Assembly (NCBI GenBank): GCA_037310415.1
Contig: CP147780.1
Span: forward strand, 2,624,001-2,688,000
Direction: 5' to 3'
Source: Candidatus Atabeyarchaeum deiterrae
GTDB lineage: Archaea; Asgardarchaeota; Atabeyarchaeia; Atabeyarchaeales; Atabeyarchaeaceae
DNA length: 64,000 bases
Shown here piece by piece: positions 16,761 through 40,664 of this stretch. The notes beneath the pieces were generated by a model, which was not told the origin of the DNA, did not search any database, and worked only from the letters and a program-made list of their open reading frames with translations. The translations under genes were made by a program, and so were the position numbers. How positions within the stretch are numbered: position 1 is the stretch's first letter; the number at the start of each line of letters is the position of its first letter.

Positions 16761-16882
16761 TCACATCTGGAAGCCTGTTTTGCCAGCACCCCATTTCGTC
16801 AAAGCAGTCTTAAGCTCCTCATGATCCTCAGCATAATCACTAACCTTAATCCCCTGCATCACAGCATCAATAGCCCACCTGA
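16761..16882 (-). repeat. RLP 3'-end copy 1 (outermost)
   Basis: Encodes AIDAVMQGIKVSDYAEDHEELKTALTKWGAGKTGFQM*, matching 39317-39438; A-rich tract to the left (U-rich on minus strand). Confidence 0.97.
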
Positions 16883-17016
16883 TGTTGCCTGTATGGATTT
16901 CGGCGCCTTGTGTCATCTGGCGAGTGCGCCTGCAGTGTGTTTCCCAAGAGGGATGGTCTTGGTTGACGCACAACGTTTAAGTAGCGGAAAGTTGGTGGGA
17001 TAATTGGTGGGATTAT

Positions 17017-17259
17017 ATGACCGACGAAGCTGTTATAGATGACAAAGGAAGGGTCGCCATTCCGAAACGGATACGGAACAAACTGGATCTGCGAGAAGGT
17101 ACTCGAGTAAAACTGGAACTCGAAGAGGGGAGAGTAGTAATAAGGAAACCCGTCGACCCAGCGGAATTCATCGACAAAATGGAAGGATTCATAAAAGAAG
17201 GTTCCCCCATTCAGAAAGCCGACCCCCTCAAACTCAAGGAGATATGGGAGAGACAATGA
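17017..17259 (+). CDS. vapB: AbrB/MazE-type antitoxin
   Basis: IDDKGRVAIPKRIR..L.L.EG motif; overlaps the PIN gene by ATGA. Confidence 0.88.
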   Translation: MTDEAVIDDKGRVAIPKRIRNKLDLREGTRVKLELEEGRVVIRKPVDPAEFIDKMEGFIKEGSPIQKADPLKLKEIWERQ

Positions 17260-17672
17260 TCTACGTAGATGCCAACTTCTGGATCTACTGGTTCGACCAG
17301 CGGCTACCAGAACATAAGCATGTTTTGAGACATATGAGGCAAGTTATCCAAGAAGGTGTCATTCTAAATGTCGTCACCCTCATGGAGGTAGCTCACTATT
17401 TCCGCAATTTAGCGGCAGAGGAATTTCGCGAGAAGCTTGACACGATTCAGAGCTTGACCACGTTGAAGGTCGTCAGCCTTGATCTGGATCTAGCTAAATC
17501 GGCATTCGACAAACTAGCGAAATATGCCAAGATTGGAGTCGGAAGCAGAGACAGTGTTATCATAGCGACGATGGAATCGGTGGGTACCAAGAGAATAGCC
17601 ACCCACGATAGGGTCTTTACAAGAATCAAAGGACTAGAAGTCATCGACCCGATTCCAGCCAACCTTGCATGA
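17256..17672 (+). CDS. vapC: PIN-domain toxin
   Basis: IYVDANFW, E, RDSVIIAT, ATHDRVF acidic PIN residues. Confidence 0.88.
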   Translation: MIYVDANFWIYWFDQRLPEHKHVLRHMRQVIQEGVILNVVTLMEVAHYFRNLAAEEFREKLDTIQSLTTLKVVSLDLDLAKSAFDKLAKYAKIGVGSRDSVIIATMESVGTKRIATHDRVFTRIKGLEVIDPIPANLA

Positions 17673-17730
17673 CTAACAAAAGCGAAATCCAAAAGAAGAT
17701 GTGGAGAGTTTATTGATTCTCATCAGGTTC

Positions 17731-17784
17731 TCACATCTGGAACCTGTCTTACCAGTACCCCACTTCGTCAAAGCGGTCTTAAGC
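17731..17784 (-). repeat. RLP 3'-end copy 2 (short, 1-nt deletion)
   Basis: tcacatctggaacctgtcttaccagtaccccacttcgtcaaagcggtcttaagc; encodes LKTALTKWGTGKTG. Confidence 0.95.
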
Positions 17785-17799
17785 ATTGTTCGCGCATGT

Positions 17800-18441
17800 C
17801 TATTTCCTGCGAAGCCGTGGAAGCAGTCGCCTGCTACGCTGCATGTAATCTCGGTACTCTTTCCCAAAGTGATCGAGCATCATTTTCTCCTCGCCATCGA
17901 TCCTCTTGTTGATTATCAGCAAGGTCAGTGCAGAAACGACTAGAATAAGCCAGTCAGCTGCTATCATTCCTGTCGCGAACATGAAAATCAATGACGCAGT
18001 GTACATTGGATGCCGGATTCGGTAATATGGCCCCCAGGTGACGAGTTTGTGTTTCGGTCTTATTTCTAGCTTGAATGTCCAGAACACTCCCAGAGTCCTG
18101 TGGGTCCAAACAAGCAGAACAAGTGATAGCACTGCTAGGATTACACCAATCACGATAACCCAAATTGGAGTCGGAAGCGGGATTGCACTCCATGCTCGCC
18201 ACGGTGGGTAGGCGATGTAGAGAAGCATTGGGATAGCCCAACCGATCGCCAGCATATCTTGGAGCACAGTGTCGCGTTTGCGCTCATATTTGCTACCACT
18301 CAATCTGAACCTCTTTTTCCTTAATTCAGGATCTATTTTCTTTACTTTGCGCTCGTAGTATGCTCTGATTCCTCCAAACGCGGACAAGAGAACCAGCATA
18401 GTCAATCTGAAAAACAGCTCTTCATCAACAGAAAAACACAT
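17800..18441 (-). CDS. Isoprenylcysteine carboxyl methyltransferase family membrane protein
   Basis: HKLVTWGPYYRIRHPMY, EEKMMLDHFGKEYRDY. Confidence 0.85.
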   Translation of the reverse strand: MCFSVDEELFFRLTMLVLLSAFGGIRAYYERKVKKIDPELRKKRFRLSGSKYERKRDTVLQDMLAIGWAIPMLLYIAYPPWRAWSAIPLPTPIWVIVIGVILAVLSLVLLVWTHRTLGVFWTFKLEIRPKHKLVTWGPYYRIRHPMYTASLIFMFATGMIAADWLILVVSALTLLIINKRIDGEEKMMLDHFGKEYRDYMQRSRRLLPRLRRK

Positions 18442-18614
18442 CTGTTCTACTAGCCTCCCACGATTTCACTCTTATGCCGTTGGTTCGAAAACTGTTCTCT
18501 AATCCTAACCGTTAGAGGCTTCGTTTTCTCTGAGCATAGTTAACCTTGTCATCAGACCAGCGACCTTATTCTTATATGTTTTTGCGGGAATATGGCGCTG
18601 GGAAGGCATGCGGA

Positions 18615-19349
18615 ATGAAACTATCATACACTGAGATTTTCAAGTATTCGGACATACTCAACCCAGTCTCTATAACCACATTACTCTTAGCAGGTAAGCT
18701 TGCCCAACTGGAACCCAAGAAGACAGTCCTTGACCTTGGAAGTGGAAAAGGTTTTCCTTCTCTATTGTGGGCGAGTGTATTTGGAGTTCGGGTTGAAGGA
18801 TTTGACTTGAACAGGAATTACGTCAAATACGCAAATTCACGTGCTAAGATGCTGAATCTTTCGAGTCGAGTCGAATATTCATATGGAGATGTCGGAGAAC
18901 TGAGGCTTAGCAGAAAATATGATGTGATAGCTTCTTTGGGGCTTGGAGTAGCGCAAGTATATGGAAGTAACGGTGATGCTTTGAGAGTGCTCAAAACTAT
19001 GCTGCATAAGGACGGTGTTTTGATCATGGCAGAACCTGTTTGGCTTACTAAACCTGTTTCGTCGAAAGTGCTGAAAGCTCTAGGCGAGGTTGAAGACAGC
19101 TTTGCTACCAAGCCTGAAATGTGGGAACTGTTGCAGAAATCTGAGTTTCAAGAGTTGGGAGATTTCGTTTCCTCTAAAGAAGACTGGGAAGTCTATGTTA
19201 GACCAACCTACTTTGCCATGCAAGAAATCGTCAAGAGTAAGAGCGACCTTGCAGAGGAAGCTGAAGGGGTCATAAATAGCTTCAGAGCTGAATATGATGC
19301 CGCCGGTCAACACTGGAACATGGTCCTTTGGGTTGTCAAATCTCGATAG
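18615..19349 (+). CDS. Class I SAM-dependent methyltransferase
   Basis: VLDLGSGKG motif I, YDVIASLG. Confidence 0.85.
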   Translation: MKLSYTEIFKYSDILNPVSITTLLLAGKLAQLEPKKTVLDLGSGKGFPSLLWASVFGVRVEGFDLNRNYVKYANSRAKMLNLSSRVEYSYGDVGELRLSRKYDVIASLGLGVAQVYGSNGDALRVLKTMLHKDGVLIMAEPVWLTKPVSSKVLKALGEVEDSFATKPEMWELLQKSEFQELGDFVSSKEDWEVYVRPTYFAMQEIVKSKSDLAEEAEGVINSFRAEYDAAGQHWNMVLWVVKSR

Positions 19350-19556
19350 GATCTCTTTGGATGCAAACGCGCGCTGGCAAGAAAAATCAGGAATCCAGCC
19401 TAAAGAGGGAGGGAGTCTTGGAGTCCCGCTCCACGCGTTCCCGAACCTACTTTGCTTCTACTTGCTTAGAGTCTACCCGAAAAGACTTAAATACAGTAAG
19501 CAATAGACAAGTCAACCACTCCTTGTATTTGATTCAGAGGCAAGGGAGGTACTCAA

Positions 19557-20180
19557 GTGAAAAGAAAAATGATCTGTGCTCTAGTGGTATTATCAGTGCT
19601 CTTAGCTTCCATGTCTACAATCACCAGCACAAGGGCGGCAGATTACAGCAAGGTCGGCGTGAAGCAAGGAGACTGGGCGGAATACGCAGTCTCTTCGACA
19701 GGACACACGTGGAACAAGGCGCGACTCGACATAACTGGCGTATCGGGAGCCCGAGCTAATCTCAGCCTCACAATATACTATCCAAACGGCACGATTGCCG
19801 GCACGGAAACCGGTTACGCAAACGTCACCAGTGGCAATGTTCCGTATTGGATGATTGCACCCAACCTCAACAAAGACGATCTCATTTATCCGGCCTCGTC
19901 CAACAAGATCAACGATACTGCTCAGATGATTGTTGCTGGAGCGACTAGGACAGTCAACCGTCTCGTATGGTCGAGCTATGGGAACCTTGCATGGGAATGG
20001 GATAGAACTACCGGGCTAACGATCAGATTCTACATTTCAGACGGTGGCTGGGACAACTACACTATGACAGCTACCAACATGTGGCTACCAGATTGGGTTT
20101 TACCTGTCGTGATCGGCGGTGCAGTGGGTGCAGTGGCACTGATCGCTGTGGCGGTCGTGATTATTAGGCGCAGACGCTGA
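19557..20180 (+). CDS. Secreted/surface protein with C-terminal TM anchor
   Basis: Signal peptide, VGVKQGDWAEY, C-terminal hydrophobic helix plus RRRR. Confidence 0.75.
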   Translation: MKRKMICALVVLSVLLASMSTITSTRAADYSKVGVKQGDWAEYAVSSTGHTWNKARLDITGVSGARANLSLTIYYPNGTIAGTETGYANVTSGNVPYWMIAPNLNKDDLIYPASSNKINDTAQMIVAGATRTVNRLVWSSYGNLAWEWDRTTGLTIRFYISDGGWDNYTMTATNMWLPDWVLPVVIGGAVGAVALIAVAVVIIRRRR

Positions 20181-20427
20181 TGAGTCGTTGCTTCTAGGCA
20201 AATTGCCAGCATCTCCCTTTTTTTATTGAAGTAGCACCCCATTGGAGAGACAGAACCACGTTAGAACGAGGGCACTAGAAAAGGATTCTATGACCAGACA
20301 AGCACCTAATTCAGGTACATGCAAAGGACAGAATACCTCCAGTCAGAGGCTTACCTCGATTGATGAAGTGACTCAATCCCAGTTCTAGGAACATGCGATA
20401 ACCATGAAGACCGTTAATTCGATCACG

Positions 20428-20805
20428 CTAATCTCCTATGAGCTCCACATCCTCGAGCCCTTTGAAGTGCTCATCGCCTGTCACGAGCCTCGCCTGTTCA
20501 CTTCTCGCTGTCGCATATATGATTGAATCCGCCATACCCAACCCGAGCTTCAGACTCACGTCGGCCGCGCTTATCGCCAGCTCCTCACTAAGAGGAACAA
20601 TCTTCGTTCTCGCCAGCTGCCCATACACTTCCAGTGCCATTTCCTCTCCCTTCTCTCGCCTCACTTTCTTGTAGACTTCGTAGACAATGATCGTCGGTGT
20701 TATCGTGTTCTCCTCACTTGCTTGCTCGACGTATTTCTCGTACTTGGCAGCGAGCTTACCAGCGGCAAAGTATTCAATCCACCCGTGGGAATCAAGCAGA
20801 ATCAA
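20428..20805 (-). CDS. vapC: PIN-domain toxin
   Basis: LLDSHGWIEYF, EVYK, ADSIIYATA, LVTGDEHF. Confidence 0.9.
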   Translation of the reverse strand: MILLDSHGWIEYFAAGKLAAKYEKYVEQASEENTITPTIIVYEVYKKVRREKGEEMALEVYGQLARTKIVPLSEELAISAADVSLKLGLGMADSIIYATARSEQARLVTGDEHFKGLEDVELIGD

Positions 20806-21011
20806 AATCTATCTCCCTCGTCCCTGATGTTTTCGGTTGATAGCCCCTTCAAGGAACCCTTCAGTTCTTTTGCTGGTCTTTGAGGGATGATGCTAATGAT
20901 ACCCTCTTTTTCTATGATAACCACTCTCTGCCCGGGCGTTATGTTTGCCCTTTTTCTCACCTGTTCTGGAATCACAACTTGGAATTTAGATGAAATCTTC
21001 ACGGTCGTCAT
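20802..21011 (-). CDS. vapB: AbrB/MazE-type antitoxin
   Basis: VKISSKFQVVIPEQVR; overlaps vapC. Confidence 0.88.
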   Translation of the reverse strand: MTTVKISSKFQVVIPEQVRKRANITPGQRVVIIEKEGIISIIPQRPAKELKGSLKGLSTENIRDEGDRF

Positions 21012-21188
21012 CGATACCCACCTAGTTCAACGAACGTTGCATCGATATATAAACTGTTCTATTAGCTTCTCAACGGTGCCAGGTTATTCGTCTCTTTGTG
21101 GAATCTGTTGAATATGGCAGTTACTTGAGGTCTTGCGAAGCTATAGACGAAAAGAAGGAAGTGAATTTCTGGTTTGGCTCATGTCAAC

Positions 21189-21304
21189 CCACATCTGGAA
21201 ACCTGTCTTACCAGCACCCCACTTAGTCAAAGCAGTCTTGAGCCCCTCATGCTCCTTAGCATACTCACTGACCTTAATCACCTGCATCACAGCATAAATA
21301 GGCC
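21189..21304 (-). repeat. RLP 3'-end copy 3
   Basis: acatctggaaacctgtcttaccagcaccccacttagtcaaagcagtcttgag...cctgcatcacagcat; stop codon mutated to TGG. Confidence 0.95.
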
Positions 21305-21527
21305 ACCAAAAAGTGTGAAAACCTTCCTCAATGTCACTAGGAAAGAGAGAGTTCTTAAGGGAATGACCCGCCTACTTAATTGAGGGAGAAATCAGCTCAA
21401 CTTGGCCCATGTATCGCACTATGCAAAGTCAGTTGGGCGGTTCTGAATCGATCGGTTTTGTACAAAGCAGTGATTAGCCGCGAAGAATTGAAGCGAGAGA
21501 TGTCTGACTCTTAGGCGGGACATCAAC

Positions 21528-21809
21528 ATGCAGGTAGAAGTGATAGAGAACAAGATTGCTCCCGTGCTCAAGCGTTACGGTGTCAGGAGAGCTGCGATTT
21601 TCGGCTCCATTGCTAGGGGAGAAGAAATGGAGAATAGTGACATAGATATCTTAGTTGAGTTCGAAGGAGACAAGAGTCTACTCGATCTAGCAGGACTTAA
21701 GATCGAACTTGAGGAAACGTTGGGGAGGAAAGTAGATGTCCTAACCTATGACTCTTTGCATCCCTTGCTTAGAGATCGAATTCTCAGCGAACAAAAGGTG
21801 ATCCTATGA
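21528..21809 (+). CDS. Minimal nucleotidyltransferase (MNT) antitoxin
   Basis: FGSIARGE...SDIDILVEF, LGRKVDV. Confidence 0.92.
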   Translation: MQVEVIENKIAPVLKRYGVRRAAIFGSIARGEEMENSDIDILVEFEGDKSLLDLAGLKIELEETLGRKVDVLTYDSLHPLLRDRILSEQKVIL

Positions 21810-22177
21810 AGAAGGATCCGCTGGTATTTGTCGAGCACATGCTGGAAAGCATGCAAATGATAGAGGAATACGTCGGAAGAACAACAAGAGAACAATTCAT
21901 GAGTTCACGACTAACGCAAGATGCAGTCATCAGAAGAATCGAGATCATTGGAGAAGCCGCAAAGAACGTACCAGAAGATGTGAAGAAAAGCTATCCCAGC
22001 ATACCTTGGAAAAGAATAGCCGGAATGAGAGACATTCTGATCCATGGATACTTTGGCGTCGATCTGGGGTTAACTTGGAAAGTTGCCAGTGAAGAGCTCG
22101 GAGAGCTAAAGAGCAAGATTATGAAGGTAAAGAAGAATCTGGAGGACATAAGAAAAGGTAGCAAAGCAAAGAACTAG
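21806..22177 (+). CDS. HEPN (DUF86) RNase toxin
   Basis: DAVIRRIEIIGEAAK, IPWKRIAGMRDILIHGY (RxxxxH). Confidence 0.92.
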   Translation: MKKDPLVFVEHMLESMQMIEEYVGRTTREQFMSSRLTQDAVIRRIEIIGEAAKNVPEDVKKSYPSIPWKRIAGMRDILIHGYFGVDLGLTWKVASEELGELKSKIMKVKKNLEDIRKGSKAKN

Positions 22178-22235
22178 ATGCTTTCTTTAAACCGAAAAAA
22201 GGAGAGGGGAATTGGCTTGATCCCCTCATGTTCGC

Positions 22236-22306
22236 TTAAATCTGGAAGCCTGTTTTGCCAGCACCCCACTTAGTCAAAGCAGTCTTGACCCCCTCATCCT
22301 CTTCAG
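22236..22306 (-). repeat. RLP 3'-end copy 4
   Basis: ttaaatctggaagcctgttttgccagcaccccacttagtcaaagcagtcttgac; purine tract to the left. Confidence 0.93.
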
Positions 22307-22452
22307 TTTGGACCTGCCTTGAATTTCGGGGCGGAGAACGCGTGCGTATGAACATTATATGGGAGAAGTACCGAGGTTCAAGATGACTAGCCAAAACGCT
22401 AGCAGATAATCGCTTCGATTGTATGACGTGTTTAGAGACTCAGGGATTATGA

Positions 22453-22941
22453 TTACGTCGGGGACGTGTGGCGCGTTTTGAGTTGGGTTGCTATCTTCTT
22501 TCCGAAATCCACGCATTTGGGAAGCTCGCCTTCTGCGACTGGGCCCTTCATTCCTGTGACCTTTATCGATAAGCCAGGAGTTATTAGCTTCAAACTTGGA
22601 ACTTTTTCACTTATCCTCTTCTCCATCTTCTTCACAACCTGCTCGAAGCTCTTACCTCCTCCTTGAGTATCGAAGACAGCCACCCATTTCGTCTTCAGAT
22701 CGAGTTTGCCGAGTTTATCGATGAATGCGACAATGCCGCGGGCAGGTCTGGTGGCATGGTTTGGCGACCCTATCAACACTGCGTCCGACCTAGCCACTTT
22801 TTCAAGGTTGACTTCCTTGACATCAGCAATAGCGGTTTCTATTTCCGCGATTTCTCTCATTCCCTCCACGATCTTCTCCGCCACGAGCTTTGTGTTACCA
22901 TACTTTGTGTCGTAGACGACAGAAACTTTCACCATGGGCAA
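22453..22941 (-). CDS. Flavodoxin family protein
   Basis: YDTKYGNTKLVAE, IGSPNH, AVFDT. Confidence 0.85.
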   Translation of the reverse strand: MPMVKVSVVYDTKYGNTKLVAEKIVEGMREIAEIETAIADVKEVNLEKVARSDAVLIGSPNHATRPARGIVAFIDKLGKLDLKTKWVAVFDTQGGGKSFEQVVKKMEKRISEKVPSLKLITPGLSIKVTGMKGPVAEGELPKCVDFGKKIATQLKTRHTSPT

Positions 22942-23177: not shown

Positions 23178-23996
23178 ATGGGTATCGTTTATGCTTGCAT
23201 AGCACCGCATGGGTCTGAGGTTATTCCTGAACTTGCAGGCGACAAGTTGGAGGCTTTCAGCGAAACAAGAAGAGGCATGGAAGAGTTAGCCAGACAAATG
23301 AAGAAGCATAGTCCACACACAATAATCATAGCCACGCCTCACGGCCTAAGACTCGACCACACAATCGGCATAGTAACCTCGCAATATTCTGCAGGAAACC
23401 TAGAAGACAAAGGTAAAACGGTCAGCGCCCGTTTCAAATGCAACCGTCAACTCGCACAAAAAATCTATCAAACCGCCAAAAAAGCAGGATTACCCGTTGT
23501 AGCCGCGAATTATGGCACTAGCGAAGGACCAGACTCTTGCATGCCAATGGATTGGGGCGTGCTAATACCATTATGGTTTTTTGGCGCGCAAGAAAAGAAA
23601 AAACCTCGAATAATCATCGTGGCCCCTTCCAGAGAAATCCCGCTCACGCAACTTGTGGAATTTGGCAAAGTCATAGCTCGAACTTCAGAAACATCAAAGA
23701 GGAAAATAGCCTTCGTCTCCAGCGCAGACCAAGGACACGCACACGACAAGACTGGACCGTACGGCTTTCACCCAGCATCCAAGAAATATGACGAGCTAGT
23801 GATAAAAGCCATAAGAGAGAACAACTTGAAGCAAATACTTACGCTGGATTTACAGTTTGTGGAAGACGCGAAGCCTGATAGTCTCTGGCAAATAGCCATT
23901 CTTGAAGGCGTGTTAGAACATGTACCCATGAAATCAAGGTTCGTCTCATATCAGGCACCAACGTATTTTGGTCTGATGTGTGCCGATTTTGAGTGA
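23178..23996 (+). CDS. LigB/Memo-like (class III extradiol dioxygenase subunit B fold) protein
   Basis: IAPHG, ATPHG, MDWGVLIPL, SSADQGHAH, PTYFG. Confidence 0.8.
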   Translation: MGIVYACIAPHGSEVIPELAGDKLEAFSETRRGMEELARQMKKHSPHTIIIATPHGLRLDHTIGIVTSQYSAGNLEDKGKTVSARFKCNRQLAQKIYQTAKKAGLPVVAANYGTSEGPDSCMPMDWGVLIPLWFFGAQEKKKPRIIIVAPSREIPLTQLVEFGKVIARTSETSKRKIAFVSSADQGHAHDKTGPYGFHPASKKYDELVIKAIRENNLKQILTLDLQFVEDAKPDSLWQIAILEGVLEHVPMKSRFVSYQAPTYFGLMCADFE

Positions 23997-24061
23997 CTGA
24001 CCCTCGCGCGTGCTTCATCTCCGATCTTCCTCATGATTACTTATTCTCCTTCTTGTTGCAC

Positions 24062-24190
24062 CTACATCTGGAAACCAGTCTTACCTGCACTCCACTTCGT
24101 CAAAGCAGTCTTCGGCGCCTAATGCTCCACGGCATACTCATCAAGTTTAATGCCATGCATCATCACATGATTAACCTGACTGAAAGCTCT
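24062..24190 (-). repeat. RLP 3'-end copy 5 (decayed)
   Basis: ctacatctggaaaccagtcttacctgcactccacttcgtcaaagcagtctt...ctgaaagctct. Confidence 0.92.
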
Positions 24191-24386
24191 CACCCGCATT
24201 TTCAAGCCATCTTGGCGCATGTAGGACATCACAAATGCTTGCTAATACTCATAGACACGGTTGAAAACCCCAAGAAGAACATGAAAATAGAAAATGGAAG
24301 TGCCAAGAAGTAACACTCTTTTTAAAGCAGGACGCCCAAAAGTGAAGATCAAAAGAACAAGAAGGCGACGAGGAGGTGCTGATAGA

Positions 24387-24818
24387 GTGAAGATTGGTGA
24401 AGAGACATGGAATCTTTTACAGAAGCATCTGGGCTACACAAGTGAAGAGATGAGGATATTCAGAGAGAATCGAAGGAATGAGGATGTTCTCTCCAAGACG
24501 CCTGAACTCATGAACAAGACGATAATTGCTGAGGTGGTTGAATCCCATGGATGCAATAGTCAGCATAAGGTCGGAGACAAGTTCATTTTTGACGGAGCGG
24601 GCAACCTCATAACGAAACTCTGCCCCAAGAGAATTTGCGTCTACGCCTTGAATCCAATCGCAATGCAAATCTTCACATTGAACGAGTTACTATATGCAGG
24701 TGTCAAACCCAATGACATGAGATTCAAACGGGCAGGTTGCTTTGATGTGGGAGTACAATGTGGCGGATGGGGTCATATCGTAATGGAGATCAGGATGGAG
24801 GATCGCAAGAAAAAGTGA
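24387..24818 (+). CDS. Conserved hypothetical Cys-containing protein
   Basis: GGAGGTG RBS; AEVVESHGCNSQHKVGDKF, CPKRIC, CFDVGVQCGGWG. Confidence 0.65.
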   Translation: MKIGEETWNLLQKHLGYTSEEMRIFRENRRNEDVLSKTPELMNKTIIAEVVESHGCNSQHKVGDKFIFDGAGNLITKLCPKRICVYALNPIAMQIFTLNELLYAGVKPNDMRFKRAGCFDVGVQCGGWGHIVMEIRMEDRKKK

Positions 24819-24950
24819 TAACATAGGAACAAGATCATCACGTCATACGCGAATAGGTTACGGCAGCTTTGGCTTTAACATCTCAGCAAAAACAAATGAT
24901 GCCCAAAAAAGAAAAAGTAGGGTGATGCTGATTATTCCCTCTAGGTTCAC

Positions 24951-25085
24951 ATACATCTGGAAGCCTGTCTTACCAGTACCCCACTTCGTAAGTGCAGTCT
25001 TAAGCTCCTCATGCTCCTCAGCATACTCACTAACCTTGATCCCCTGCATCACAGCATCAATAGCCAGACGAAACACACGAGCACC
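24951..25085 (-). repeat. RLP 3'-end copy 6 (longest)
   Basis: Encodes GARVFRLAIDAVMQGIKVSEYAEEHEELKTALTKWGTGKTGFQM; stop mutated to TAT. Confidence 0.97.
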
Positions 25086-25120
25086 ATCACCTTATCATTC
25101 AGAGTTCGCAGATAGCTTGC

Positions 25121-32028: not shown

Positions 32029-32986
32029 TCTACAAGAGTTCCTGCGCGGAGCGTTGAAATGGTGTGGAACGTTGAAGGTGATGCAGGCCATAATCACTGG
32101 AATACGTAAGCAACATAGAGCTGCTGTAGACGCGTCTACTCTTAGCGAGAAGAATGGCTCGACACCTTTGGGGAAAACAATGGATCAAACACCCAGATAC
32201 AACTACAATTCTTCCCAAATCAAACGACAATACTCAAAGCACTTGACTATCAGCGAATCCTCGACAACCACAAATCCTCCTTCCCCTTTTTTTCTCCTTC
32301 TTCTCTCTATTCATTTTGCTCTCCCCCACCCACCAACATCCTAACGACCGACAAATCGCCGTGAACCTCATGCCGCGTTTCGAATGGAAGTGATTCGCAT
32401 TTTCGCTTAGTATGTGGTGAACGGGCGCGGAGAGAGCAAGTAAGCCGGCAGGCTGAAAAATCGAAAAAGAAGAGAGAAGGAGACACTTACTTTCACCTTT
32501 GCGTCAGCCGGAAGGCTGACCACGCAAGCGAAGATCGACCGACAGATTGGGGAATCGCGCGCCAGTCAAGTGCATGAATAACTTGATGATCAGAGTCCGC
32601 TTTCAAACCAAAGGAACAGGGAACATTGAAGACACTACAAGCTAAGACGATGAGTATCATTGAAACGCTGAAATCGAGTAGCAGAAAAGTGATGAGGTGA
32701 TAATGAAGTGAGTAAGTTACGCTCTCCTTTGACAATCTCTCTTCCCTACACAAGTAGGAGTCACAGGTCAGGGCCTCAAGCCTCCTGCTAGGTCTAGCAT
32801 AACAAACAGGTGGCTGTGGGCGGGGCTCACTCCGTTATCACCCTCAAGAGCAAGAAGTCACCGGCGCACAGTGCAACCATTGAGGATTGGTTTCCTTCCA
32901 CTAAAAGAGGAGAGAACACCCTCCACTCACCCCTGCAAATATGCTAGGATGTCCTGCAGTCTGGCCCTGATGCTGAACTAGTCTTT

Positions 32987-34372
32987 GTGTGGCGGAAGAG
33001 AGGTCAAAGAGTAGGAAGGAAAGTAGAGATCCTGAATCCAGCGCAACTATGGAAAGAACTCAAAAGAATACCATTGAGACAAATTGCTGGGAAACACGGT
33101 GTAACACGTAGAACAATATCCTTCAAATTGCGGAGAATCAGCGAAAAGAAGTACGAAAAGATCATAGCCAAACGAAGAACACGCAGCACACAGCAACAAA
33201 CATTGATTTCAGAGTCAACATGGATCAAACTAGAAGACGGACACACCATACGACAGATCGCCAAAGAACAAGGCTTACATCCTTCAATTCTCCACGAAAG
33301 AATGCAACCAAGCAGAAGATACGACGAGATCAGAACCAAACTAAAAGAAACCAAGATACATGTGATGCAAGAAGCAGCAAAGCGATTCAAACAAGGAGAA
33401 ACACTGGCAGAACTCTCAAAGGAAATCAAAGTGGGACAGGGCACTCTTAGAGAAGAAATCCGCAGGACAATAGGACAAAAGAAGTACCAGAGAATCATCG
33501 AAGAAAGAAGGCGAAACCCGAAAAACAAGATCCCAACCAAAATCATAGAAGTAGCAGCAAAACGACTCAAAAGTGGAACGAAGATCATAGAACTTACCAG
33601 GGAACTCAGGATACATCGAAAGACTCTAAGAAGAAGACTGCGCGAAAGACTCGGAGGCAAATACAACAGAATTATGCAGAAGCGAAGGATTCCAGACAAG
33701 CTGTTTCACAAATCATCGCAGAAGTTCATGGAAGGCTATTCATTAAGCTTGCTTTCGAAAGAGTACGAAATACCACTACAAACACTGCACCGAAGACTAC
33801 CGAGGATAATAGGCAAAAAGAAGTACAAAGACATCATTAGAAAAAGACAGCTGCACATATTCTTTGGAACATTGACAAAAGGAGCAATCAGCAAATACGA
33901 GCTCAAAGTCAAAGAACTGCTAAACAAGAACAAAGTTCGATTTAGCACAACAACCATCATTGAGACGAATGGGCACAGATACTTTCCCGACTTCGTGATT
34001 TGCCGCAGTAAAACACCTTTAGTAATCGAAGCCACAGGAATGAACATTGAAGAATACTGGAAGAAGTACAAACGAAAACTAGAGGACTACGAAGCAGCAG
34101 GATACAAATCGCTATTTGTTGCATCAGATACATCAGTGTACAAGATGGCGTTGAAATACGTCCACGAAGATGTTCTTGTCAAATTCAACGAATTCAAAGA
34201 CAAAGTCGCATCCCTAAAAAAGGTGCCGAACAAACGGGATTGCTCGCGCCCAATGGCAAATAGGACGCCGAAAAACACTGCCGACATCCCACTTGTAATC
34301 TCTCAGATAGTCTGCTTCAAAGAGATAGGTAACCAGCTGATACTTCTCCCGGCGGAATGTCAATTAGCTTAA
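32987..34372 (+). CDS. Multi-HTH-repeat protein with C-terminal PD-(D/E)XK-like nuclease domain
   Basis: Repeated G.TL.ELSKE..I...TL...LRR.IG.KKY..II units; YFPDFVI...LVIEATG. Confidence 0.65.
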   Translation: MWRKRGQRVGRKVEILNPAQLWKELKRIPLRQIAGKHGVTRRTISFKLRRISEKKYEKIIAKRRTRSTQQQTLISESTWIKLEDGHTIRQIAKEQGLHPSILHERMQPSRRYDEIRTKLKETKIHVMQEAAKRFKQGETLAELSKEIKVGQGTLREEIRRTIGQKKYQRIIEERRRNPKNKIPTKIIEVAAKRLKSGTKIIELTRELRIHRKTLRRRLRERLGGKYNRIMQKRRIPDKLFHKSSQKFMEGYSLSLLSKEYEIPLQTLHRRLPRIIGKKKYKDIIRKRQLHIFFGTLTKGAISKYELKVKELLNKNKVRFSTTTIIETNGHRYFPDFVICRSKTPLVIEATGMNIEEYWKKYKRKLEDYEAAGYKSLFVASDTSVYKMALKYVHEDVLVKFNEFKDKVASLKKVPNKRDCSRPMANRTPKNTADIPLVISQIVCFKEIGNQLILLPAECQLA

Positions 34373-34790
34373 AGTCGACCCGGTCATTATCTTCAATTAC
34401 TTCATATATCCGTGTATATGTTGCTTGTTCCGCCTTTGCTTGAATGAGCAATACTTTTCTCTTGTCAGACGATTTCTTGACATCTCCGTAAACATAATTG
34501 TTAAGAAAATCCACCCTACCTCTTGGAGTCATCTTGCTCAGGTCTGACATCCATGCCGTCAGCGCTATTGCAACCCAATCCACAGCGCTTTTACTCAATT
34601 TAAGCAGAACTTGTTTGACTGTTCTTCTGCCATAGCAGAGCGCGGCAGTCTTGTGGCCACCAACAGAATAGAAGACCGTTGGAGGTAGCTCTCTGTCTCT
34701 TTCGACATCGCGCTTCGATAGCTCTGACAGCTCTTCTACAACAGCGGCAAGAGCGTATTTCTCTCCTTTCAATCCCAAGATCTGAATCAC
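34317..34790 (-). CDS. Hypothetical protein
   Basis: 157-aa ORF with GAGGTG RBS; convergent and overlapping with the nuclease gene end. Confidence 0.5.
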   Translation of the reverse strand: MIQILGLKGEKYALAAVVEELSELSKRDVERDRELPPTVFYSVGGHKTAALCYGRRTVKQVLLKLSKSAVDWVAIALTAWMSDLSKMTPRGRVDFLNNYVYGDVKKSSDKRKVLLIQAKAEQATYTRIYEVIEDNDRVDFKLIDIPPGEVSAGYLSL

Positions 34791-35187
34791 CTCGCGATTC
34801 CCGGCCCCAAGACTGTCCTTCTCCTATACGGAATGAGGGAATGAAAGATCCTTGAGATATTGTCATAATCGGCTTACTTAAAAGCCACTATCGATCAAGA
34901 AGCTCGGCAGGAAGACTGGAGTAACAACGCCCCCCTTTGTTTCCTTATTCTTGTTGCGTTTTGATGGCCACGTTTCGCAGTGTGTTGAGAACAAGCTAGT
35001 CGTTTCACTGGAAAATGATGAAAGGAGAAATAGAAGATTTAAGAAGCATCTCATGCTATTACTTTCTTTGAGGAGTAGCTTTTTCTGGGAAATCCCTCAA
35101 AGATTTTCGTAAGAACCAACCAATAAACGTGGATATGAAAAACGAGGGAGTACTTGGCAAGCTATCAGCATAGATGGGTGTGAGGAC

Positions 35188-36213
35188 ATGAATTTAGAAC
35201 GGGTTGTAGTTAAACCCTATGAACAGTCTCTGTTCTCTGCTTTGAGTTTTGAGATAGAAATAAGTGTTACAAGGTATGAGGAGACGATCTTGTGTGTAAA
35301 CGGATGGATAGAGACAGATGACAGAAAGATGATTGGCATTGGCAGCCTGTGTCGCCAAGATATCTCAAAGCATGGTGAACTTGGGGCTAAGGAGCTTCCA
35401 GAATCAAGTCGCCCCTCTGCGAAAGACACTTGGAATGCTAGTCTAATAGTGTTCTTGGATAGCATATCCTTGGATCACATAGAGACGCGGAGGAAGCAAG
35501 ACAAGAAGGGAGATGTAAGGTTAGTTCTGAACTTGGAAGTTATTAGTGCTGAAAGTCGAACTTTTGTTTCTCCAGTCTACGGAATTCCTGCCGAGAAGAT
35601 CGGCTTAACTGTGAGAGAGATTCATGGGCAATACGGGCAACCTACATTGTACTCTCCAGTTATACATATTTCTTCAGGCGTGGTCCCTCTATATCACAGC
35701 GATCTCAAGCTACTCTCTCCAGACCCTCATTCCTCTGTTTTCTTATCACTGAGGACAAATACCTTTAGCCACGAAACAAGGATTCCGTCGACAGACTGGA
35801 TCCAAGATTACTCTCCTAGACTCGGACTTGGCGAGTTCTTCGTTTTCCAGATGGGAAGAGGTGAGAAAGCAATCAAGGATGCATGGAACTACATTGAAAA
35901 AGCTCAAGAGTCCCTGTCATTGGGGATCACCAAAGGGGTTTATGGGAATTGTCGGGATATGGGATTCCTGCTTGACAGAACCCTAAGAGATAAAATTGGG
36001 CAAAACAGCTTTGCATACCAAGAGAAATGGGGTCGTACTTACAACAATTTCAAACACTTGGCATCACTTGATCTGCACTTGGAAGAGCATAGAAAATCAG
36101 AGAAATATGGCTCTAATAATGTAGTGGTCACGAGTGCGGATGCAGAACATGTGTTGCTGATAGCTAAGATGATGGTGAAAAATGCAGACGAATTGCTGCG
36201 AGAAAGTAAATGA
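35188..36213 (+). CDS. Hypothetical protein, paralog of 27545-28564
   Basis: Collinear similarity over the full length with the 339-aa protein. Confidence 0.7.
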   Translation: MNLERVVVKPYEQSLFSALSFEIEISVTRYEETILCVNGWIETDDRKMIGIGSLCRQDISKHGELGAKELPESSRPSAKDTWNASLIVFLDSISLDHIETRRKQDKKGDVRLVLNLEVISAESRTFVSPVYGIPAEKIGLTVREIHGQYGQPTLYSPVIHISSGVVPLYHSDLKLLSPDPHSSVFLSLRTNTFSHETRIPSTDWIQDYSPRLGLGEFFVFQMGRGEKAIKDAWNYIEKAQESLSLGITKGVYGNCRDMGFLLDRTLRDKIGQNSFAYQEKWGRTYNNFKHLASLDLHLEEHRKSEKYGSNNVVVTSADAEHVLLIAKMMVKNADELLRESK

Positions 36214-36344
36214 TGAGAGTGAAGAGTATTAGGTGAAAGAACCCGAGAAACGCAAGAGAAGACAGTTAGTGAAATACTTAAACTTCTGTAAGGCAGTTTC
36301 CGAACGACTGAAGAGTCATGCGAGAATTGCTGGAGGGCGGTTCC

Positions 36345-39023
36345 ATGAGCTATCCAAAACATGAAGCAAAAAAGATAGTCAAAGAACTCGTGGATTTCTA
36401 TGATTCGAACAAAGACAAGCTGAAAGGAATTAGCGAGACAGACACAAGAGTGAAGTTCATAGATCGGCTTTTCGAATCGTTGGGATGGGATGTCTGGGGG
36501 AGGAGAATTCCCGACGAGGTGCAAAGAGAGGAAGGGGTCAAAGGCAGAGAGCCCACTAAGAAAAAAGCGGATTATAGTTTTCGTATTGCTGGCGTAACCC
36601 ACCTTATTGTCGAAGCCAAAGCACTAGGAGAAGACTTGGAAAGAAAAGATTTCATTAAACAAGCCATATCATATGCCTACAACAAGGCGTGTTCTTGGGC
36701 CGTTTTGACGGATTTCAGAATCATTAAGATCTTCTATGTGGATAGGGAAAGTGACTTTCCATTCTACATGATCAGGCTAGATGATGTCAAGGGATTTGAT
36801 GAGAACTTTGAAATACTTTGGTTTCTTTCAAAGGAGAGTTTCTTGAACAACTCACTCGAAAGTGAAGCAATTAAGCGCGGGATAAGGAAGGAAAAGATAT
36901 CGATCGACAAGGCGTTGTTTGAGGACCTTAGAAAATGGAGAGAATTGCTTTCTAAAGACATCAGAAGAAGATATGCTGACAAATATGCCCCACTTGTTAT
37001 TGACGAGATAGTCCAGAGTATTATAGACAGACTGATTTTCATCAGGAAAGCCGAGGATTCGGAACTAGAAGAGAAGAAACTAGATCAGTTGACTCGAAGA
37101 TTCAACGACAATACTTTTCTAGATCTTATGAAAGTATTCGCTGAATACAAAGAGAAATACAATAGTAGACTATTCGGAGAGAGCAGGACCGAAGAAGAAG
37201 TAGTGGCGGGTAAAACGGAGAAAGCCGAAGTTGACAAAATAGTGATTAGCAACAATGTCATTTCACAAGTTGTTCGCAGCATGTACACATCCGAGGGAAG
37301 CGACATAGAGTACAATTTTGCGGTCATAGATGCGGACATTCTCGGGAACATATATGAGCAGTATCTCGCCTTCATCTTGGGGCAAACACCAACCAAGACG
37401 AAGCTAGAGGGGGGAATTGCACATAGAAAAGAGCAAGGGATATACTATACGCCGACCTATATTGTTGATTACATTGTTAGAAATACTGTCGGTGAAATCC
37501 TGAAGAGCAAGAAACTCGAAGACTTGGAGAAAGTAAGGATCTTGGATCCTGCATGTGGTTCCGGCTCGTTCTTGATAAAGGTCTTTGATGTTATCAATGA
37601 GTACTACACGAATGGAAAGAGCGAGTTACCTTATGCTAGAAGAAAGGAGATCCTAGAGCGACATATTTTTGGTGTTGATCTAGATCCAAAAGCCGTAGAA
37701 ATTGCTCAACTCAATCTTTCGTTGAAAATTGCAGAAAAAGGGCACAGATTGCCGTTACTGCAGAAGAACATTAAGTGTGGCAACAGCATAATCAGTGACA
37801 AATCGATAGGCGGTGACAGCGCTTTCGTCTGGGATACCGAATTCCCTGACATAAGGAAAGATGGTTGGTTTGATGTGATAATTGGAAATCCTCCATACTT
37901 CAAGATCTTTGAGAACGATCCTTTGAACAAGACGGTCGATTATCAGGAAATAAAATCTGGAATGATGAATGCTTCGGCTCTCTTCATAAATAGGTCCCTT
38001 AGACTACTCAAGAAGGGCGGCTACTTGGGGATGATTGTCCCGAAGATGCTGGCATTTACGGACTCTTGGGACAAGATAAGGGACAAACTTCTACGGAACT
38101 TTAGGATCCTGAAGGTTGTTGACTGTGGAAAAGCGTTCAGAGGAGTTCTGCTCGAACAGATTATCTTCATACTCAAGAACGAGTCTGAGGATTTGGATAG
38201 AAACCTGATAACCGTAGGCGAACTCAATAATCAAGTGATAGCCGAGACAGCCAAAGTTCCGCAGAAACTCTGCCTAGAAGAGAATAGCATACATCTAGAG
38301 CCCAAGCAGATTGCCTATGAAATTAAAAGGAAGATAGAGAGATCAAAGACCACTCTGGGAGATGTATCGCATATAATGCTTGGATTGGGAATTCAAGGAA
38401 AGGATTTCTTTACCGACGAATACATGAGTGGATATGAAAAGGTTCTGAGAGGAGATGACATTCAGAGATATGTCATAAGAGGATGTAGGTTCTACAATCC
38501 AAACGATAAAAACATCGTCAAGATAAAAGATACAATTGAGAGGTTCAAGACGTCTCACATAGTAGCGCAAAGAATAGTAGCACACATACAAGATCATATC
38601 AAATTGACTTGTGCACTCGATGAAGAGGGCCTTTTTTCCTTCAATACTGTCACCAATATTTTCGTCATGGACAAGAAGTATCCGATGGAGTACATTCTGG
38701 CTCTACTGAATTCAAATGCAGTCCAGTACTATACTTACAAGTTCATTTACAACAATGCTATCAGGTCCATGGATTTCTATAAGGCGTATGCAAAGAAGAT
38801 CCCTCTGCCTAAATATGACAAAAACCGGCAGGATGGTATTGCGAAACTTGCAAGGGGACTGATAACTATGCACAAAAAACTCTTTGATTTGGGTGGTCAG
38901 CAGACTAACGAAACACAGAGGTTGAAAGATGAGATAGAGAGAACACAAAAGGAGATTGACAACGGAATCTACGCATTGTACGGTCTCGATCAAGATGAGA
39001 TGAAGATAATCGAGAAGCGTTAG
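36345..39023 (+). CDS. Type IIG restriction-modification enzyme (HsdR-N-like nuclease + N6-adenine MTase + TaqI-like TRD)
   Basis: ADY...VEAK...QAISYA...LTDF; GIYYTP; ILDPACGSGSFL; IGNPPY; LALLNS. Confidence 0.9.
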   Translation: MSYPKHEAKKIVKELVDFYDSNKDKLKGISETDTRVKFIDRLFESLGWDVWGRRIPDEVQREEGVKGREPTKKKADYSFRIAGVTHLIVEAKALGEDLERKDFIKQAISYAYNKACSWAVLTDFRIIKIFYVDRESDFPFYMIRLDDVKGFDENFEILWFLSKESFLNNSLESEAIKRGIRKEKISIDKALFEDLRKWRELLSKDIRRRYADKYAPLVIDEIVQSIIDRLIFIRKAEDSELEEKKLDQLTRRFNDNTFLDLMKVFAEYKEKYNSRLFGESRTEEEVVAGKTEKAEVDKIVISNNVISQVVRSMYTSEGSDIEYNFAVIDADILGNIYEQYLAFILGQTPTKTKLEGGIAHRKEQGIYYTPTYIVDYIVRNTVGEILKSKKLEDLEKVRILDPACGSGSFLIKVFDVINEYYTNGKSELPYARRKEILERHIFGVDLDPKAVEIAQLNLSLKIAEKGHRLPLLQKNIKCGNSIISDKSIGGDSAFVWDTEFPDIRKDGWFDVIIGNPPYFKIFENDPLNKTVDYQEIKSGMMNASALFINRSLRLLKKGGYLGMIVPKMLAFTDSWDKIRDKLLRNFRILKVVDCGKAFRGVLLEQIIFILKNESEDLDRNLITVGELNNQVIAETAKVPQKLCLEENSIHLEPKQIAYEIKRKIERSKTTLGDVSHIMLGLGIQGKDFFTDEYMSGYEKVLRGDDIQRYVIRGCRFYNPNDKNIVKIKDTIERFKTSHIVAQRIVAHIQDHIKLTCALDEEGLFSFNTVTNIFVMDKKYPMEYILALLNSNAVQYYTYKFIYNNAIRSMDFYKAYAKKIPLPKYDKNRQDGIAKLARGLITMHKKLFDLGGQQTNETQRLKDEIERTQKEIDNGIYALYGLDQDEMKIIEKR

Positions 39024-39270
39024 TGCAAGCGAGTGCTTCCAGGGAATGTTCGGGAGAAATTGGCAAAGTCCGCCAAGGACAAGGTGGGCAGGACAGAGAT
39101 AGGCAAAGAAAGCTCGTGAAGGAACTTGAAGCCGAGTGTGAGCAAGTACTTAAAGAGACCGAACTCGGGAGGCGCTAGATAGGCAGGGCTAGGGCTTGCA
39201 GGGTTTTAGGGTTTTTAGAGTAGATTGATAAACAATCGAGAATATAGCAACCTCACATTCCCATAGGACT

Positions 39271-39290
39271 CCAAAAAAAAGAAAGAGGGA
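39271..39290 (-). terminator. U-rich archaeal terminator tract of RLP gene
   Basis: ccaaaaaaaagaaagaggga on + strand, ~30 nt past the TAG; similar tracts flank most repeat copies. Confidence 0.55.
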
Positions 39291-39316
39291 AATTTACTGA
39301 TTTCCGTCTAGCTTCC

Positions 39317-40664
39317 CTACATCTGGAAACCTGTCTTACCAGTACCCCACTTGGTCAAAGCAGTCTTAAGCTCCTCATGCTCCTCAGCATACTCACTAAC
39401 CTTAGTGCCCTGCATCACAGCATCAATGGCCTGCCTGAATGCTCTTGCACCTGCAGCTGGACCATTCGGGTGAGCGTGGATTGCGGGCTCATCAATTATA
39501 GATGGGCTTTCCGCCGCCTGACCCGATCATGATGTCAAAGCCAAGATCATTGCACACCTTGTCAACATGACCCGCAGTAATCCCACCACTAGGCATAGGC
39601 ATCGTAGGCTTAATATGCTGCAACGGAAACTGCATACGCTTCGCAATCATCAAAAACTTATCAACAAGTATAGGGGCTTTTCCGTACGGGGCCGGGTCGA
39701 GTAGTATGTCTGCGCCACATATGCGTGGTAGTTTGCTCATTATGAGTGTGGGTGATACTCCTGTTATGGGGCTGTAGCTCCATGCGCCTGCAATATCCAT
39801 GTGACCCATTATCGGCAAGGTGTTTGGTTCTTCTGCTACCATTCTTAGGGCGTCGAATCCTATTGCGAGGTAGTTGATGAGTAGTGCGTTTCCGCCTGCT
39901 TGTTTGACTGTGTCGGCGTTTTCTAGGAGTTTGTCGACTTTGTCGGTTATGTTGCAGCAGTATAGGGTTTTTTCGCCTTTTTCTTTGTTTGCTTTTTCTG
40001 CCATTTCCATGTAGAGTGGGACTCTGTCTGCGATTTTGTTGTATTCTGGTTCGGCGATGATTTCGTCGTCTTTGATGCAGTCTGTTCCGCCTACTGCGGC
40101 TCCGTAGAATAGGTCTTTGCCGACTTGTGGTGTGTATCCTGTTTTGGGTTTTATCATGTTGTTGAGTAGGGGTCTTTTGGGTATTTTCATGAGGGTTCTT
40201 ATTCCTTTGAGTCCGAGTTTTGGTCCTTTGAATCCTTTGAGCCAGCTTTTGGGGAACCATAGGTCCATGAGTTTGATTCTTCCGCCCATGCTGATGTTGC
40301 CGACTACGGTTGAGAGTAGCATGGGGATTTGGGCTCCGAAGTTTTCCCATGGGAAGCCTACGGCTATGATCATGTTGCGGTGGTCTACTTCTTTTGGTAC
40401 GGTGTAGACGTATTCGGGTGTTTCCCATATGCCGAGTACTTTTGCCTGGCGTTTGATTTTGAGTTCGATTGTTTCGCCTGGGACTGGTGTCCAGGTTCCT
40501 GTTGATTGTTCGAGGGCTGCCATTTCTGCTACGTCGATGACTGGTAGTGCGGGGTTGAGGCCTGCGAAGTAGAATCCGATGACGTATTTGTCTGTGTCGA
40601 GGCCGTCGAAGAATCCTTCTGGTTGGGCTTCGATGGGCATTTCGATGGGTTTTTCTTCTCCCAT
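39317..40664 (-). CDS. RuBisCO-like protein (form IV RLP), spliced join(39509..40664, 39317..39480), 439 aa
   Basis: EQSTGTW, GFKGPKLG, IKPKTG, DCIKDDE, MPSGG; exon 2 supplies IHAHPNGPAAGARAFRQAIDA...ALTKWG; GHMDIAG replaces the HRA motif of true RuBisCOs. Confidence 0.9.
39481..39508 (-). other. 28-nt bulge-helix-bulge/loop archaeal intron in RLP mRNA
   Basis: GCGG-AA^A-GCCCAUC-UAUAAUU-GAUGAGC-CCGC-AA^U; removal restores GGC GGA AUC CAC (GGIH) in frame. Confidence 0.85.

Follow-up and report, generated by a model that had tools for sequence, protein, structure and literature searches.

Organization of the locus

The gene for a RuBisCO-like protein (RLP) lies on the minus strand of a 64,000-nt stretch of the Candidatus Atabeyarchaeum deiterrae chromosome (CP147780.1, positions 2,624,001 to 2,688,000; referred to as the window). 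Downstream of it, copies of its own 3' end recur as direct repeats, and each interval between them holds unrelated cargo. The window belongs to a closed genome of the Atabeyarchaeia (Asgard), designated G000. A direct-repeat search of window positions 14000-41000 revealed a single dominant family with ten minus-strand members. Nine of these are displaced copies, at 16761, 17730, 21189, 22235, 24061, 24951, 25946, 27360 and 28876, and the tenth is the true end of the RLP gene at 39316-39396. The identical set of sites was returned by an anchored alignment, by BLAST with the RLP 3' end and by a profile built from the copies, which scored them with E values of 1e-16 to 1e-26. No additional RLP-end copy was found anywhere in the 2,756,679-bp genome, so the confinement of the copies to this array is far beyond chance. 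A preliminary description of the window had listed nine same-orientation copies, and all nine were confirmed, with coordinates agreeing within 1-6 nt.

All copies point the same way as the RLP gene and are located downstream of it, with pairwise identities of 62-95%. At the 3' edge they are uniform: the final codons are followed by a stop (TAG, TGA or TAA) and a trailer of ~45 nt that closes with a T-run. At the 5' edge they are ragged, and coding homology in G000 extends over 55 to ~150 nt. This agreed with the earlier impression of copies that end at the stop codon with a T-rich trailer and begin at variable points. A short purine/pyrimidine hairpin often precedes the T-run, with folding energies that were not significant as a set (mean z -0.6). 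Across all RLP arrays compared, the repeat length ranged from ~30 to ~350 nt, with no fixed crossover position or attachment-site (att) length. The RLP reading frame is restored at the current end, and the co-oriented direct repeats derive from the 3' end of the target. Because it is the most distal, copy 1 is probably the oldest or the original RLP end.

The copies on either side of the gene-proximal cassette of 10.4 kb have an exact 35-nt block in common, which spans the stop codon. On the 5' side of this block they differ at 5 of 31 core positions, and the trailers beyond it are similar, not identical. A 35-nt core with diverged flanks is what one crossover would be expected to leave if the gene end recombined with a related tail on incoming DNA. 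The 10.4-kb block was not present in G001 or G002, the two related genomes described below, and is apparently the youngest cassette.

Divergence of the displaced tails

Most copies still code for the same last 17-18 residues (...LKTALTKWGxGKTGFQM), each with its own TAG, TGA or TAA. When 23 copies from three genomes were compared with the current gene end within a 48-nt core, the differences were distributed 41/21/103 over codon positions 1/2/3. Neutral decay after displacement would not give such a third-position bias, so divergence of the tails took place while they were coding. Either the tails came from different RLP alleles, or each was the working gene end for a time.

The G000 RLP frame is broken by a 28-nt insert (39481-39508, minus strand) that folds into a bulge-helix-bulge-like (BHB) structure, with a 4-bp central helix, 3-nt bulges on opposite strands and a 7-bp inner hairpin. 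The insert is kept in G001 with compensatory changes in the stem (stretch L013, ~12440-12470), and a second insert of the same kind, 22 nt long, occurs in that gene (L013, ~12783). On metagenome contig L039 (18082-18459, 19358-19699 and 20931-21365), the current RLP gene lacks the 28 nt precisely between the predicted splice points, whereas the displaced tails, both 350-nt copies included, retain them. This pattern implied that long homologous stretches of the gene had been exchanged, derived from a different allele or an older one. Comparison among the genomes gives good support to a putative BHB intron in a protein gene. The sole RNA-library contig covering the site was unspliced.

Cargo of the cassettes

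The cargo identities given in the preliminary description were borne out by Pfam; among them are three VapBC pairs, an ICMT, a methyltransferase, MNT-HepT, a flavodoxin (placed on the minus strand), LigB and a HEPN protein (Table 1). Both strands carry cargo genes, of which there are two to six in several cassettes.

The proteins of 339 and 341 aa in neighbouring cassettes are members of an uncharacterised family of ~340 aa, with about 20 metagenomic homologues and no Pfam match. The AlphaFold model (pLDDT 79) is beta-rich in its N-terminal part and helical in its C-terminal part. The family was considered as a hidden recombinase and rejected, since the only meaningful Foldseek matches of the model were HEPN domains. 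As judged from the model, it is probably a defence or toxin type of protein. In other contigs a gene of this family lies downstream of a 157-aa gene.

With its type IIG restriction-modification (R-M) enzyme, its HerA-like ATPase and weak MADS-type matches in PADLOC, the 10.4-kb block looks like a defence island. It also encodes a 461-aa protein in which, by eye, five tandem helix-turn-helix-like (HTH) repeats and a possible PD-(D/E)XK-type C-terminal domain could be seen. Searches of PDB sequences, PHROGs and PADLOC gave nothing informative for this protein. A collection of 5.8 billion proteins held three homologues, two of which are near-identical relatives of the window's own. The third, the sole distant homologue at 47% identity, is encoded at 10001-11365 of L039, within the RLP-anchored island of that contig. 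A paralogue with 28% identity is encoded at 123997-124860 of G000.

Table 1. Features of the RLP locus in window coordinates, from the anchor gene outwards
Feature	Position	Strand	Evidence or remark
RLP gene, anchor	39317-40664	-	Stop TAG at 39317-39319; Pfam RuBisCO_large and RuBisCO_large_N; alignment with G001 orthologue
Current gene end with trailer hairpin and T-run; reference copy of the repeat family	39243-39460	-	Repeat search, BLAST, profile
Gene-proximal cassette, 10.4 kb	28937-39316	.	Pfam, PADLOC
Type IIG R-M enzyme	36318-39023	+	In 10.4-kb block
HEPN-like 341-aa protein	35188-36213	+	In 10.4-kb block; structure model, Foldseek HEPN
157-aa protein	34317-34790	-	In 10.4-kb block
461-aa HTH-array/nuclease-like protein	32987-34372	+	In 10.4-kb block
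HerA-like ATPase	30241-32028	+	In 10.4-kb block
159-aa secreted-type protein	29172-29651	-	In 10.4-kb block
Displaced RLP end, copy 9	28836-28947	-	~60 nt coding plus trailer; trailer closely like that of current end
339-aa HEPN-like paralogue of 341-aa protein	27545-28564	-	Sequence comparison (45% identity)
Displaced RLP end, copy 8	27352-27492	-	Most decayed; repeat search, profile
HEPN-domain protein, 315 aa	26353-27300	+	Pfam
Displaced RLP end, copy 7	25906-26088	-	Repeat search, profile
VapBC (PIN toxin and antitoxin)	25121-25767	-	Pfam
Displaced RLP end, copy 6	24903-25092	-	Exact 44-nt block in common with current gene end
Cys-rich 174-aa protein	24294-24818	+	Weak TIGR04076 match
Displaced RLP end, copy 5	24040-24203	-	Has in-frame stop
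LigB-type dioxygenase	23178-23996	+	Pfam
Flavodoxin	22453-22941	-	Pfam
Displaced RLP end, copy 4	22195-22310	-	Repeat search, profile
MNT-HepT toxin-antitoxin pair	21528-22177	+	Pfam
Displaced RLP end, copy 3	21148-21330	-	Repeat search, profile
3.4-kb cargo: ICMT/PEMT-type methyltransferase (-), S-adenosylmethionine (SAM) methyltransferase (+), 207-aa surface protein (+), VapBC (-)	17800-21011		
Displaced RLP end, copy 2	17700-17794	-	~55 nt, 1-nt deletion
VapBC (MazE/AbrB-type antitoxin and PIN toxin)	17017-17672	+	Pfam
Displaced RLP end, copy 1	16720-16902	-	Most distal; followed by GNAT and RsgA genes

RLP arrays in related genomes

The public record closest to the window is an Atabeyarchaeia (Asgard) chromosome, whose RLP has 89% protein identity. 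Arrays were compared in another closed genome (G001), a draft genome (G002) and metagenome contigs, L039 and L026 among them. Behind the RLP gene of G001 there are nine displaced tails, two of them partial; one of the partial copies lies ~80 nt behind the gene end, with no cargo in between. The draft genome G002 has at least four RLP-end copies, all on one 8.8-kb contig. L039 represents a more distant lineage, in which the RLP gene has ~75% DNA identity, and carries two displaced copies of ~350 nt and one partial copy ~20 kb away. In the other Asgard families searched, only a single copy of the RLP gene was found.

The cargo in G001 and G002 differs from that of the window and includes hydrolases, a glycosidase, transporters, several MNT/HEPN pairs, and ABM and DUF1801 proteins. 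The MNT-HepT cassette and both of its flanking tails are kept in G000, G001 and G002 at 75-79% identity, and its proximal and distal neighbours differ in all three genomes. Counted from the gene, the order in G001 is HEPN-MNT, a 335-aa protein and MNT-HepT. In G002 it is MNT-HepT, an MFS transporter, HEPN-MNT and the start of the 335-aa cassette. The relative order of MNT-HepT and HEPN-MNT is therefore reversed between the two genomes, an observation that rests on the one draft contig of G002. On L026, an orthologue (87%) of the VapBC cassette at 24952-25914 has another distal neighbour. In G001, LigB and ICMT, which are inside the array in G000, come after the most distal tail that could be detected. 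Cassette number, content and order downstream of the RLP gene all vary among the relatives, and the fixed, identical gene order raised in the preliminary description as a point against gene capture was not seen.

Several cassettes are common to the genomes at 75-86% identity, about the divergence of the core genes (82-86% among G000, G001 and G002 for atpB). Because the common cassettes diverge about as much as the genomes themselves, much of the array is old and vertically inherited, modified by gain, loss and rearrangement. The notion of a fast-turnover platform was not supported.

In G001, three RLP-tail copies were also found at two loci away from the RLP gene. In stretch L014 (9984-11289), two tails flank a DUF4760 gene in a 4.5-kb insertion behind an ABC-2 permease gene. 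In stretch L015 (8954-9055), one degenerate tail lies beside a zinc-ribbon gene. Both loci are 'empty' in G000. The junctions of the ectopic cassette at 1.80 Mb of G001 were not alignable to the empty site of G000.

Similar arrays behind atpB and acdA

The preliminary description had suggested looking for stacked 3'-end repeats behind other genes, and they were found at two. The RLP family ranked first in size among the local direct-repeat families recovered by a genome-wide self-comparison of G000. Behind atpB lies a second array with this design, spanning 593337-612416 with four copies including the gene end (612273-612416, minus strand); the displaced tails are at 608303, 594236 and 593337, and the repeats are 41-107 nt long. 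The atpB tails are also multiplied in G001 (2) and G002 (6), and not in the other families searched. At acdA, part of the 3' end recurs 36 kb downstream of the intact gene, as a displaced fragment that has at least 348 nt of DNA homology and sits in an open frame of 249 codons (fragment and gene sites at 1079614-1080363 and 1115789-1117252). Paralogues of cargo in the RLP array, one of them HerA-like and others methyltransferases, are encoded in the island so delimited (1,079,613-1,116,169). The RLP, atpB and acdA anchors have no sequence in common.

Search for recombination machinery

Neither an integrase or transposase nor a palindromic attC-like site had been visible in the preliminary inspection, and the family and inverted-repeat searches gave the same result. 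The wider search for recombinases that it had proposed showed that tyrosine and serine recombinases exist in the genome, all distant from the window. Six-frame searches of G000 detected three tyrosine recombinases (PF00589, at 0.50, 1.01 and 2.04 Mb), none of them in the window, one serine recombinase (PF00239, 1.35 Mb) and one Y1 transposase (PF01797, 1.38 Mb). The single Cas1, at 2.32 Mb, is not near the window. The six-frame PF00589 search gave no tyrosine-recombinase relic in the RLP, atpB or acdA islands of G000. No recombinase was present among the cargo open reading frames of the RLP arrays of G000, G001 and G002 scanned with Pfam, NCBIfam, PHROGs and PADLOC.

No inverted repeat of at least 10 nt lies inside any copy, and one pair alone (I21) touches the edge of a copy. 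The region gave no Rfam match at E <= 0.1 and contains no tRNA gene. Palindromes of the attC type were rejected as cassette boundaries, since none coincides with the copies and Rfam was empty. Xer/dif modules were also rejected; a dif-like consensus read near xerA had 0 matches in the window at up to 3 mismatches. A k-mer search of the cassette flanks returned nothing beyond RLP-derived words and the T-run. The motif TAAGAC, present in the RLP and atpB repeats, was considered as a shared crossover motif and treated as coincidence, as it does not occur at the acdA boundaries. Pattern scans of IMG/VR gave no credible element carrying an RLP-end site. Scans of genome and metagenome contigs for such a site gave only further arrays and no cognate integrase-bearing element.

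Assembly and population evidence

Population data were taken from Logan assembled contigs of public runs. Independent short-read contigs match the reference at 0-1 mismatches, confirm each cassette and bridge the copies at 24061, 25946 and 27360. Gross mis-assembly is unlikely, because the copies are only 62-95% identical to one another and independent contigs bridge three of them.

Several signals in these data could be taken for movement of cassettes. The summed contig depth across the array was uneven in one sample, ranging from ~26x to 110x. A contig at a depth of 2.5x could be an empty site, lacking the 10.4-kb block. A contig from an RNA library joined the RLP body to the tail of copy 6 via their common 44-nt block, which fits either a deletion by homologous recombination or a chance product of a 31-mer assembler. 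A contig of 10,465 nt corresponds to the 10.4-kb block plus shared k-mers, and such a contig is the same for a circle as for an integrated copy. The contigs encoding the RLP terminate inside the repeat. Most of the apparent joints and loose ends were dismissed, as they came from copies 1 and 2, which lie outside the stretch used for mapping and aligned to their nearest relatives. Among the assembled contigs there was no excised circle, and the only candidates for its junction were ambiguous. None of the contig joints, depth differences or empty-site signals counts as proof of mobility.

Origin of the array

These observations suggested that the locus grew by accretion, as an array in which 'end replacement' took place repeatedly at the RLP 3' end, through host homologous recombination or an unlinked enzyme. 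We hold this reading at somewhat better than even odds (a probability of about 0.55). Each event brought cargo together with an RLP-like tail (coding end, stop and T-rich terminator), and this tail took over as the working end of the gene. The former tail was displaced downstream and so became a direct repeat. The geometry is probably that of a Campbell-type single-crossover insertion of circular DNA with the gene end as the recombination substrate, or alternatively of unequal crossing-over between the arrays of different genomes. Since no recombinase travels with any cassette, strand exchange would most likely be performed by host homologous recombination, or else by an unlinked, unrecognised enzyme. 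The toxin-antitoxin cargo probably aids the persistence of the array, which changes through occasional gain, loss and reshuffling of cassettes, with the 10.4-kb R-M/HerA block as the newest arrival.

The two parts of this reading differ in strength. Serial insertion or unequal crossing-over at the gene 3' end is well supported by the co-oriented tails, the gene that is always restored, the separate stop and terminator of each tail, and the common core of the newest pair. As to the enzyme responsible, we infer a process driven by homology of the gene tail, which is favoured by the variable repeat length, the ragged 5' edges, the three unrelated anchors and the lack of a recombinase in the cargo. 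The preliminary description had proposed a gene-capture platform in which circles of cargo plus one RLP end excise and re-integrate by homologous recombination or a trans-acting recombinase. Of that proposal, the delimitation of discrete cargo by displaced RLP ends stood, and a mechanism by homologous recombination or in trans was the most economical.

Several points weigh against end replacement by homology. Exact identity between the G000 copies is short (8-44 nt), which would serve homologous recombination poorly. The public contigs demonstrated neither a circular nor an empty-site form; they are interrupted at several copies, and shared k-mers can explain the few that contain junctions. 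Homology to the anchor does not explain the RLP-end cassettes at the two other loci of G001. An integrase of an unrecognised family could be at work, notably the 461-aa HTH-array/nuclease-like protein. The initial joining of new cargo to a gene tail is also not explained.

A different origin would be a graveyard of conventional elements. The cassettes would then be remnants of plasmids or viruses that had entered an att site within the RLP 3' end with the help of their own integrase, and from which the integrase and replication genes were afterwards deleted, in the manner of cis-mobilizable element-like (CIME-like) remnants or of the tycheposon-type islands at tRNA genes. Integrative elements that target and restore gene 3' ends are, as the preliminary description had stated, a known process (PMC6563490; bioRxiv 10.1101/2020.12.28.424599). 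Integration at gene 3'-distal regions of archaea, with restoration of the open reading frame and tandem arrays, is documented (PMC6563490), and serial integration of tycheposons leaves scattered partial copies of the target (10.1101/2020.12.28.424599). The 35-nt identical core of the newest copy pair resembles att sites, and the content of the 10.4-kb block is plasmid-like or defence-island-like. However, the cargo scanned in the three genomes holds no recombinase and the G000 islands hold no PF00589 relic. Most cassettes measure ~1 kb and contain intact toxin-antitoxin pairs, and their 5' edges, from ~30 to ~350 nt, do not mark one crossover point. Three unrelated anchors would need three integrase specificities, whereas the only three tyrosine recombinases of the genome all lie elsewhere. 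The lack of an RLP-end site in IMG/VR also speaks against this origin, which we consider unlikely.

Ranked below it is a true integron analogue, in which a dedicated, unlinked recombinase would recognise the tail and terminator, excise circles and re-insert them at any tail copy. The cassette size (0.9-3.5 kb) and the cargo rich in toxin-antitoxin genes are like those of chromosomal integrons. Orthologous cassettes with different neighbours, the order reversed between G001 and G002, and the ectopic cassettes of G001 would all fit such an enzyme, as would the uneven depth and the RLP/copy-6 joint. Mixed strains and shared 31-mers could nevertheless explain these depth and junction signals. Neither an intI-like gene nor attI nor any attC-type structure was found, the cargo lies in both orientations, the length of the site varies, and no motif is conserved besides the RLP coding sequence and the T-run. 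The divergence of the common cassettes, close to that of core genes, also points to slow turnover. Set beside the features that define integrons, the array shows variation in cassette number and order, and it has no intI, no attC sites and no co-oriented promoterless cassettes. The idea of an integron analogue put forward in the preliminary description thus stood with regard to the variation of cassettes between relatives and failed with regard to intI, attI, attC and co-oriented promoterless cassettes. The array works somewhat like an integron array but is not an integron. A mere artefact, whether mis-assembly of strain variants at the repeat or simple tandem duplication of the gene end without foreign DNA, is highly improbable: short-read contigs from several runs do stop at the RLP end and at some copies, and the samples contain strain mixtures (PMC11529989), but copies so diverged cannot collapse or mis-join, three are bridged by independent contigs, the cargo of the intervals is unrelated, and like arrays occur in the closed G001, the draft G002 and independent metagenome contigs, two of them from other metagenomes.

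More tentatively, it is possible that Atabeyarchaeia, and perhaps Asgard archaea generally, capture genes without a recombinase or with an unknown one, in small cassettes of tail plus terminator that would insert by end replacement behind conserved genes (RLP, atpB, acdA). The integron-like arrays so formed could exchange cassettes across lineages that have the anchor gene in common. If true, the capture of cargo behind housekeeping genes by means of their own tail would be a simple, integrase-free route of gene gain, operating in the archaeal lineage closest to eukaryotes. It would account for the fact that some accessory and defence islands in these genomes have no recognisable mobile-element genes. 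The arrays also serve as a historical record, in which tails keep older or foreign alleles of the anchor, with and without the 28-nt intron-like insert.

Comparison with known systems

In Streptococcus thermophilus, integrase-less modules (CIMEs) flanked by att sites are reportedly stacked at the 3' end of the housekeeping protein gene fda, and a cognate integrative and conjugative element (ICE) with an integrase is said to use the same att site. Unlike this accretion, no cognate integrase-bearing element was found for the RLP end in the genome, IMG/VR or contig scans. The 'orphan' arrays of Rhs and contact-dependent inhibition (CDI) systems consist of replaced gene ends stacked downstream of the main gene, with homology that permits recombination, and their displaced ends carry different toxin tips and immunity genes. 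The RLP tails, in contrast, encode the same 17-18 residues with mostly synonymous changes, and the unrelated cargo is the variable part.

Integrated mobile genetic elements (iMGEs) of Thaumarchaeota form tandem arrays at 3'-distal portions of protein-coding or tRNA genes (PMC6563490). They resemble the RLP array in the 3'-end target, the frame restored with an incoming stop, the flanking direct repeats and the re-use of the site. However, they comprise viruses, plasmids and casposons of several genes that carry an integrase or Cas1, and their att sites or target-site duplications are short, with a median of 17 bp (PMC6563490), whereas the RLP array has nine inserts, mostly of ~1 kb, no recombinase and repeats of 55-350 nt. 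The Prochlorococcus islands built by tycheposons (bioRxiv 10.1101/2020.12.28.424599) are similar in that newcomers push older inserts deeper, partial target copies are scattered and the cargo is adaptive or defensive. They differ in their tRNA or tmRNA anchor, their tyrosine recombinases, the integrase fragments inside the islands and the circles shown by PCR (10.1101/2020.12.28.424599).

Integrons have been reported in Archaea, as cited in PMC11529989 (Ghaly et al. 2022). Like them, the RLP array has small, toxin-antitoxin-rich cassettes between a recurring site and cassette-level differences among relatives. Unlike them, it has no IntI, attI, cassette promoter (Pc) or attC hairpin; what recurs in it is a coding 3' end, repeated directly together with a terminator, and the cargo lies in both orientations.

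The RLP array therefore differs from known 3'-end islands in the number of inserts, their miniature size and the long, coding, synonymously diverged repeats. It differs further in the complete lack of an integrase and in the recurrence at several protein genes across the lineage. The paper that described these genomes reported 18 integrated elements (PMC11529989), and its main text makes no mention of RuBisCO, direct repeats, toxin-antitoxin genes or such an array.

Other repeats in the genomes

The other direct-repeat families with at least three copies in G000 were paralogous gene motifs or tRNA genes, not gene-end arrays. Two intron-containing tRNA genes that are 99% identical (243848-243938 and 246125-246215) flank a gene for a 636-aa protein, and a third copy of the same tRNA gene, 87% identical, lies at 266758. 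The locus at 243848-246215 may be a tRNA-anchored insertion. In the 10.4-kb block of the RLP array, a motif of ~65 nt (29733-29803) lies upstream of the gene for the 159-aa secreted-type protein. Several metagenome contigs start or stop at it. The motif recurs three times in G001 at 80-88% identity, and two of these recurrences lie just past the atpB array of that genome.

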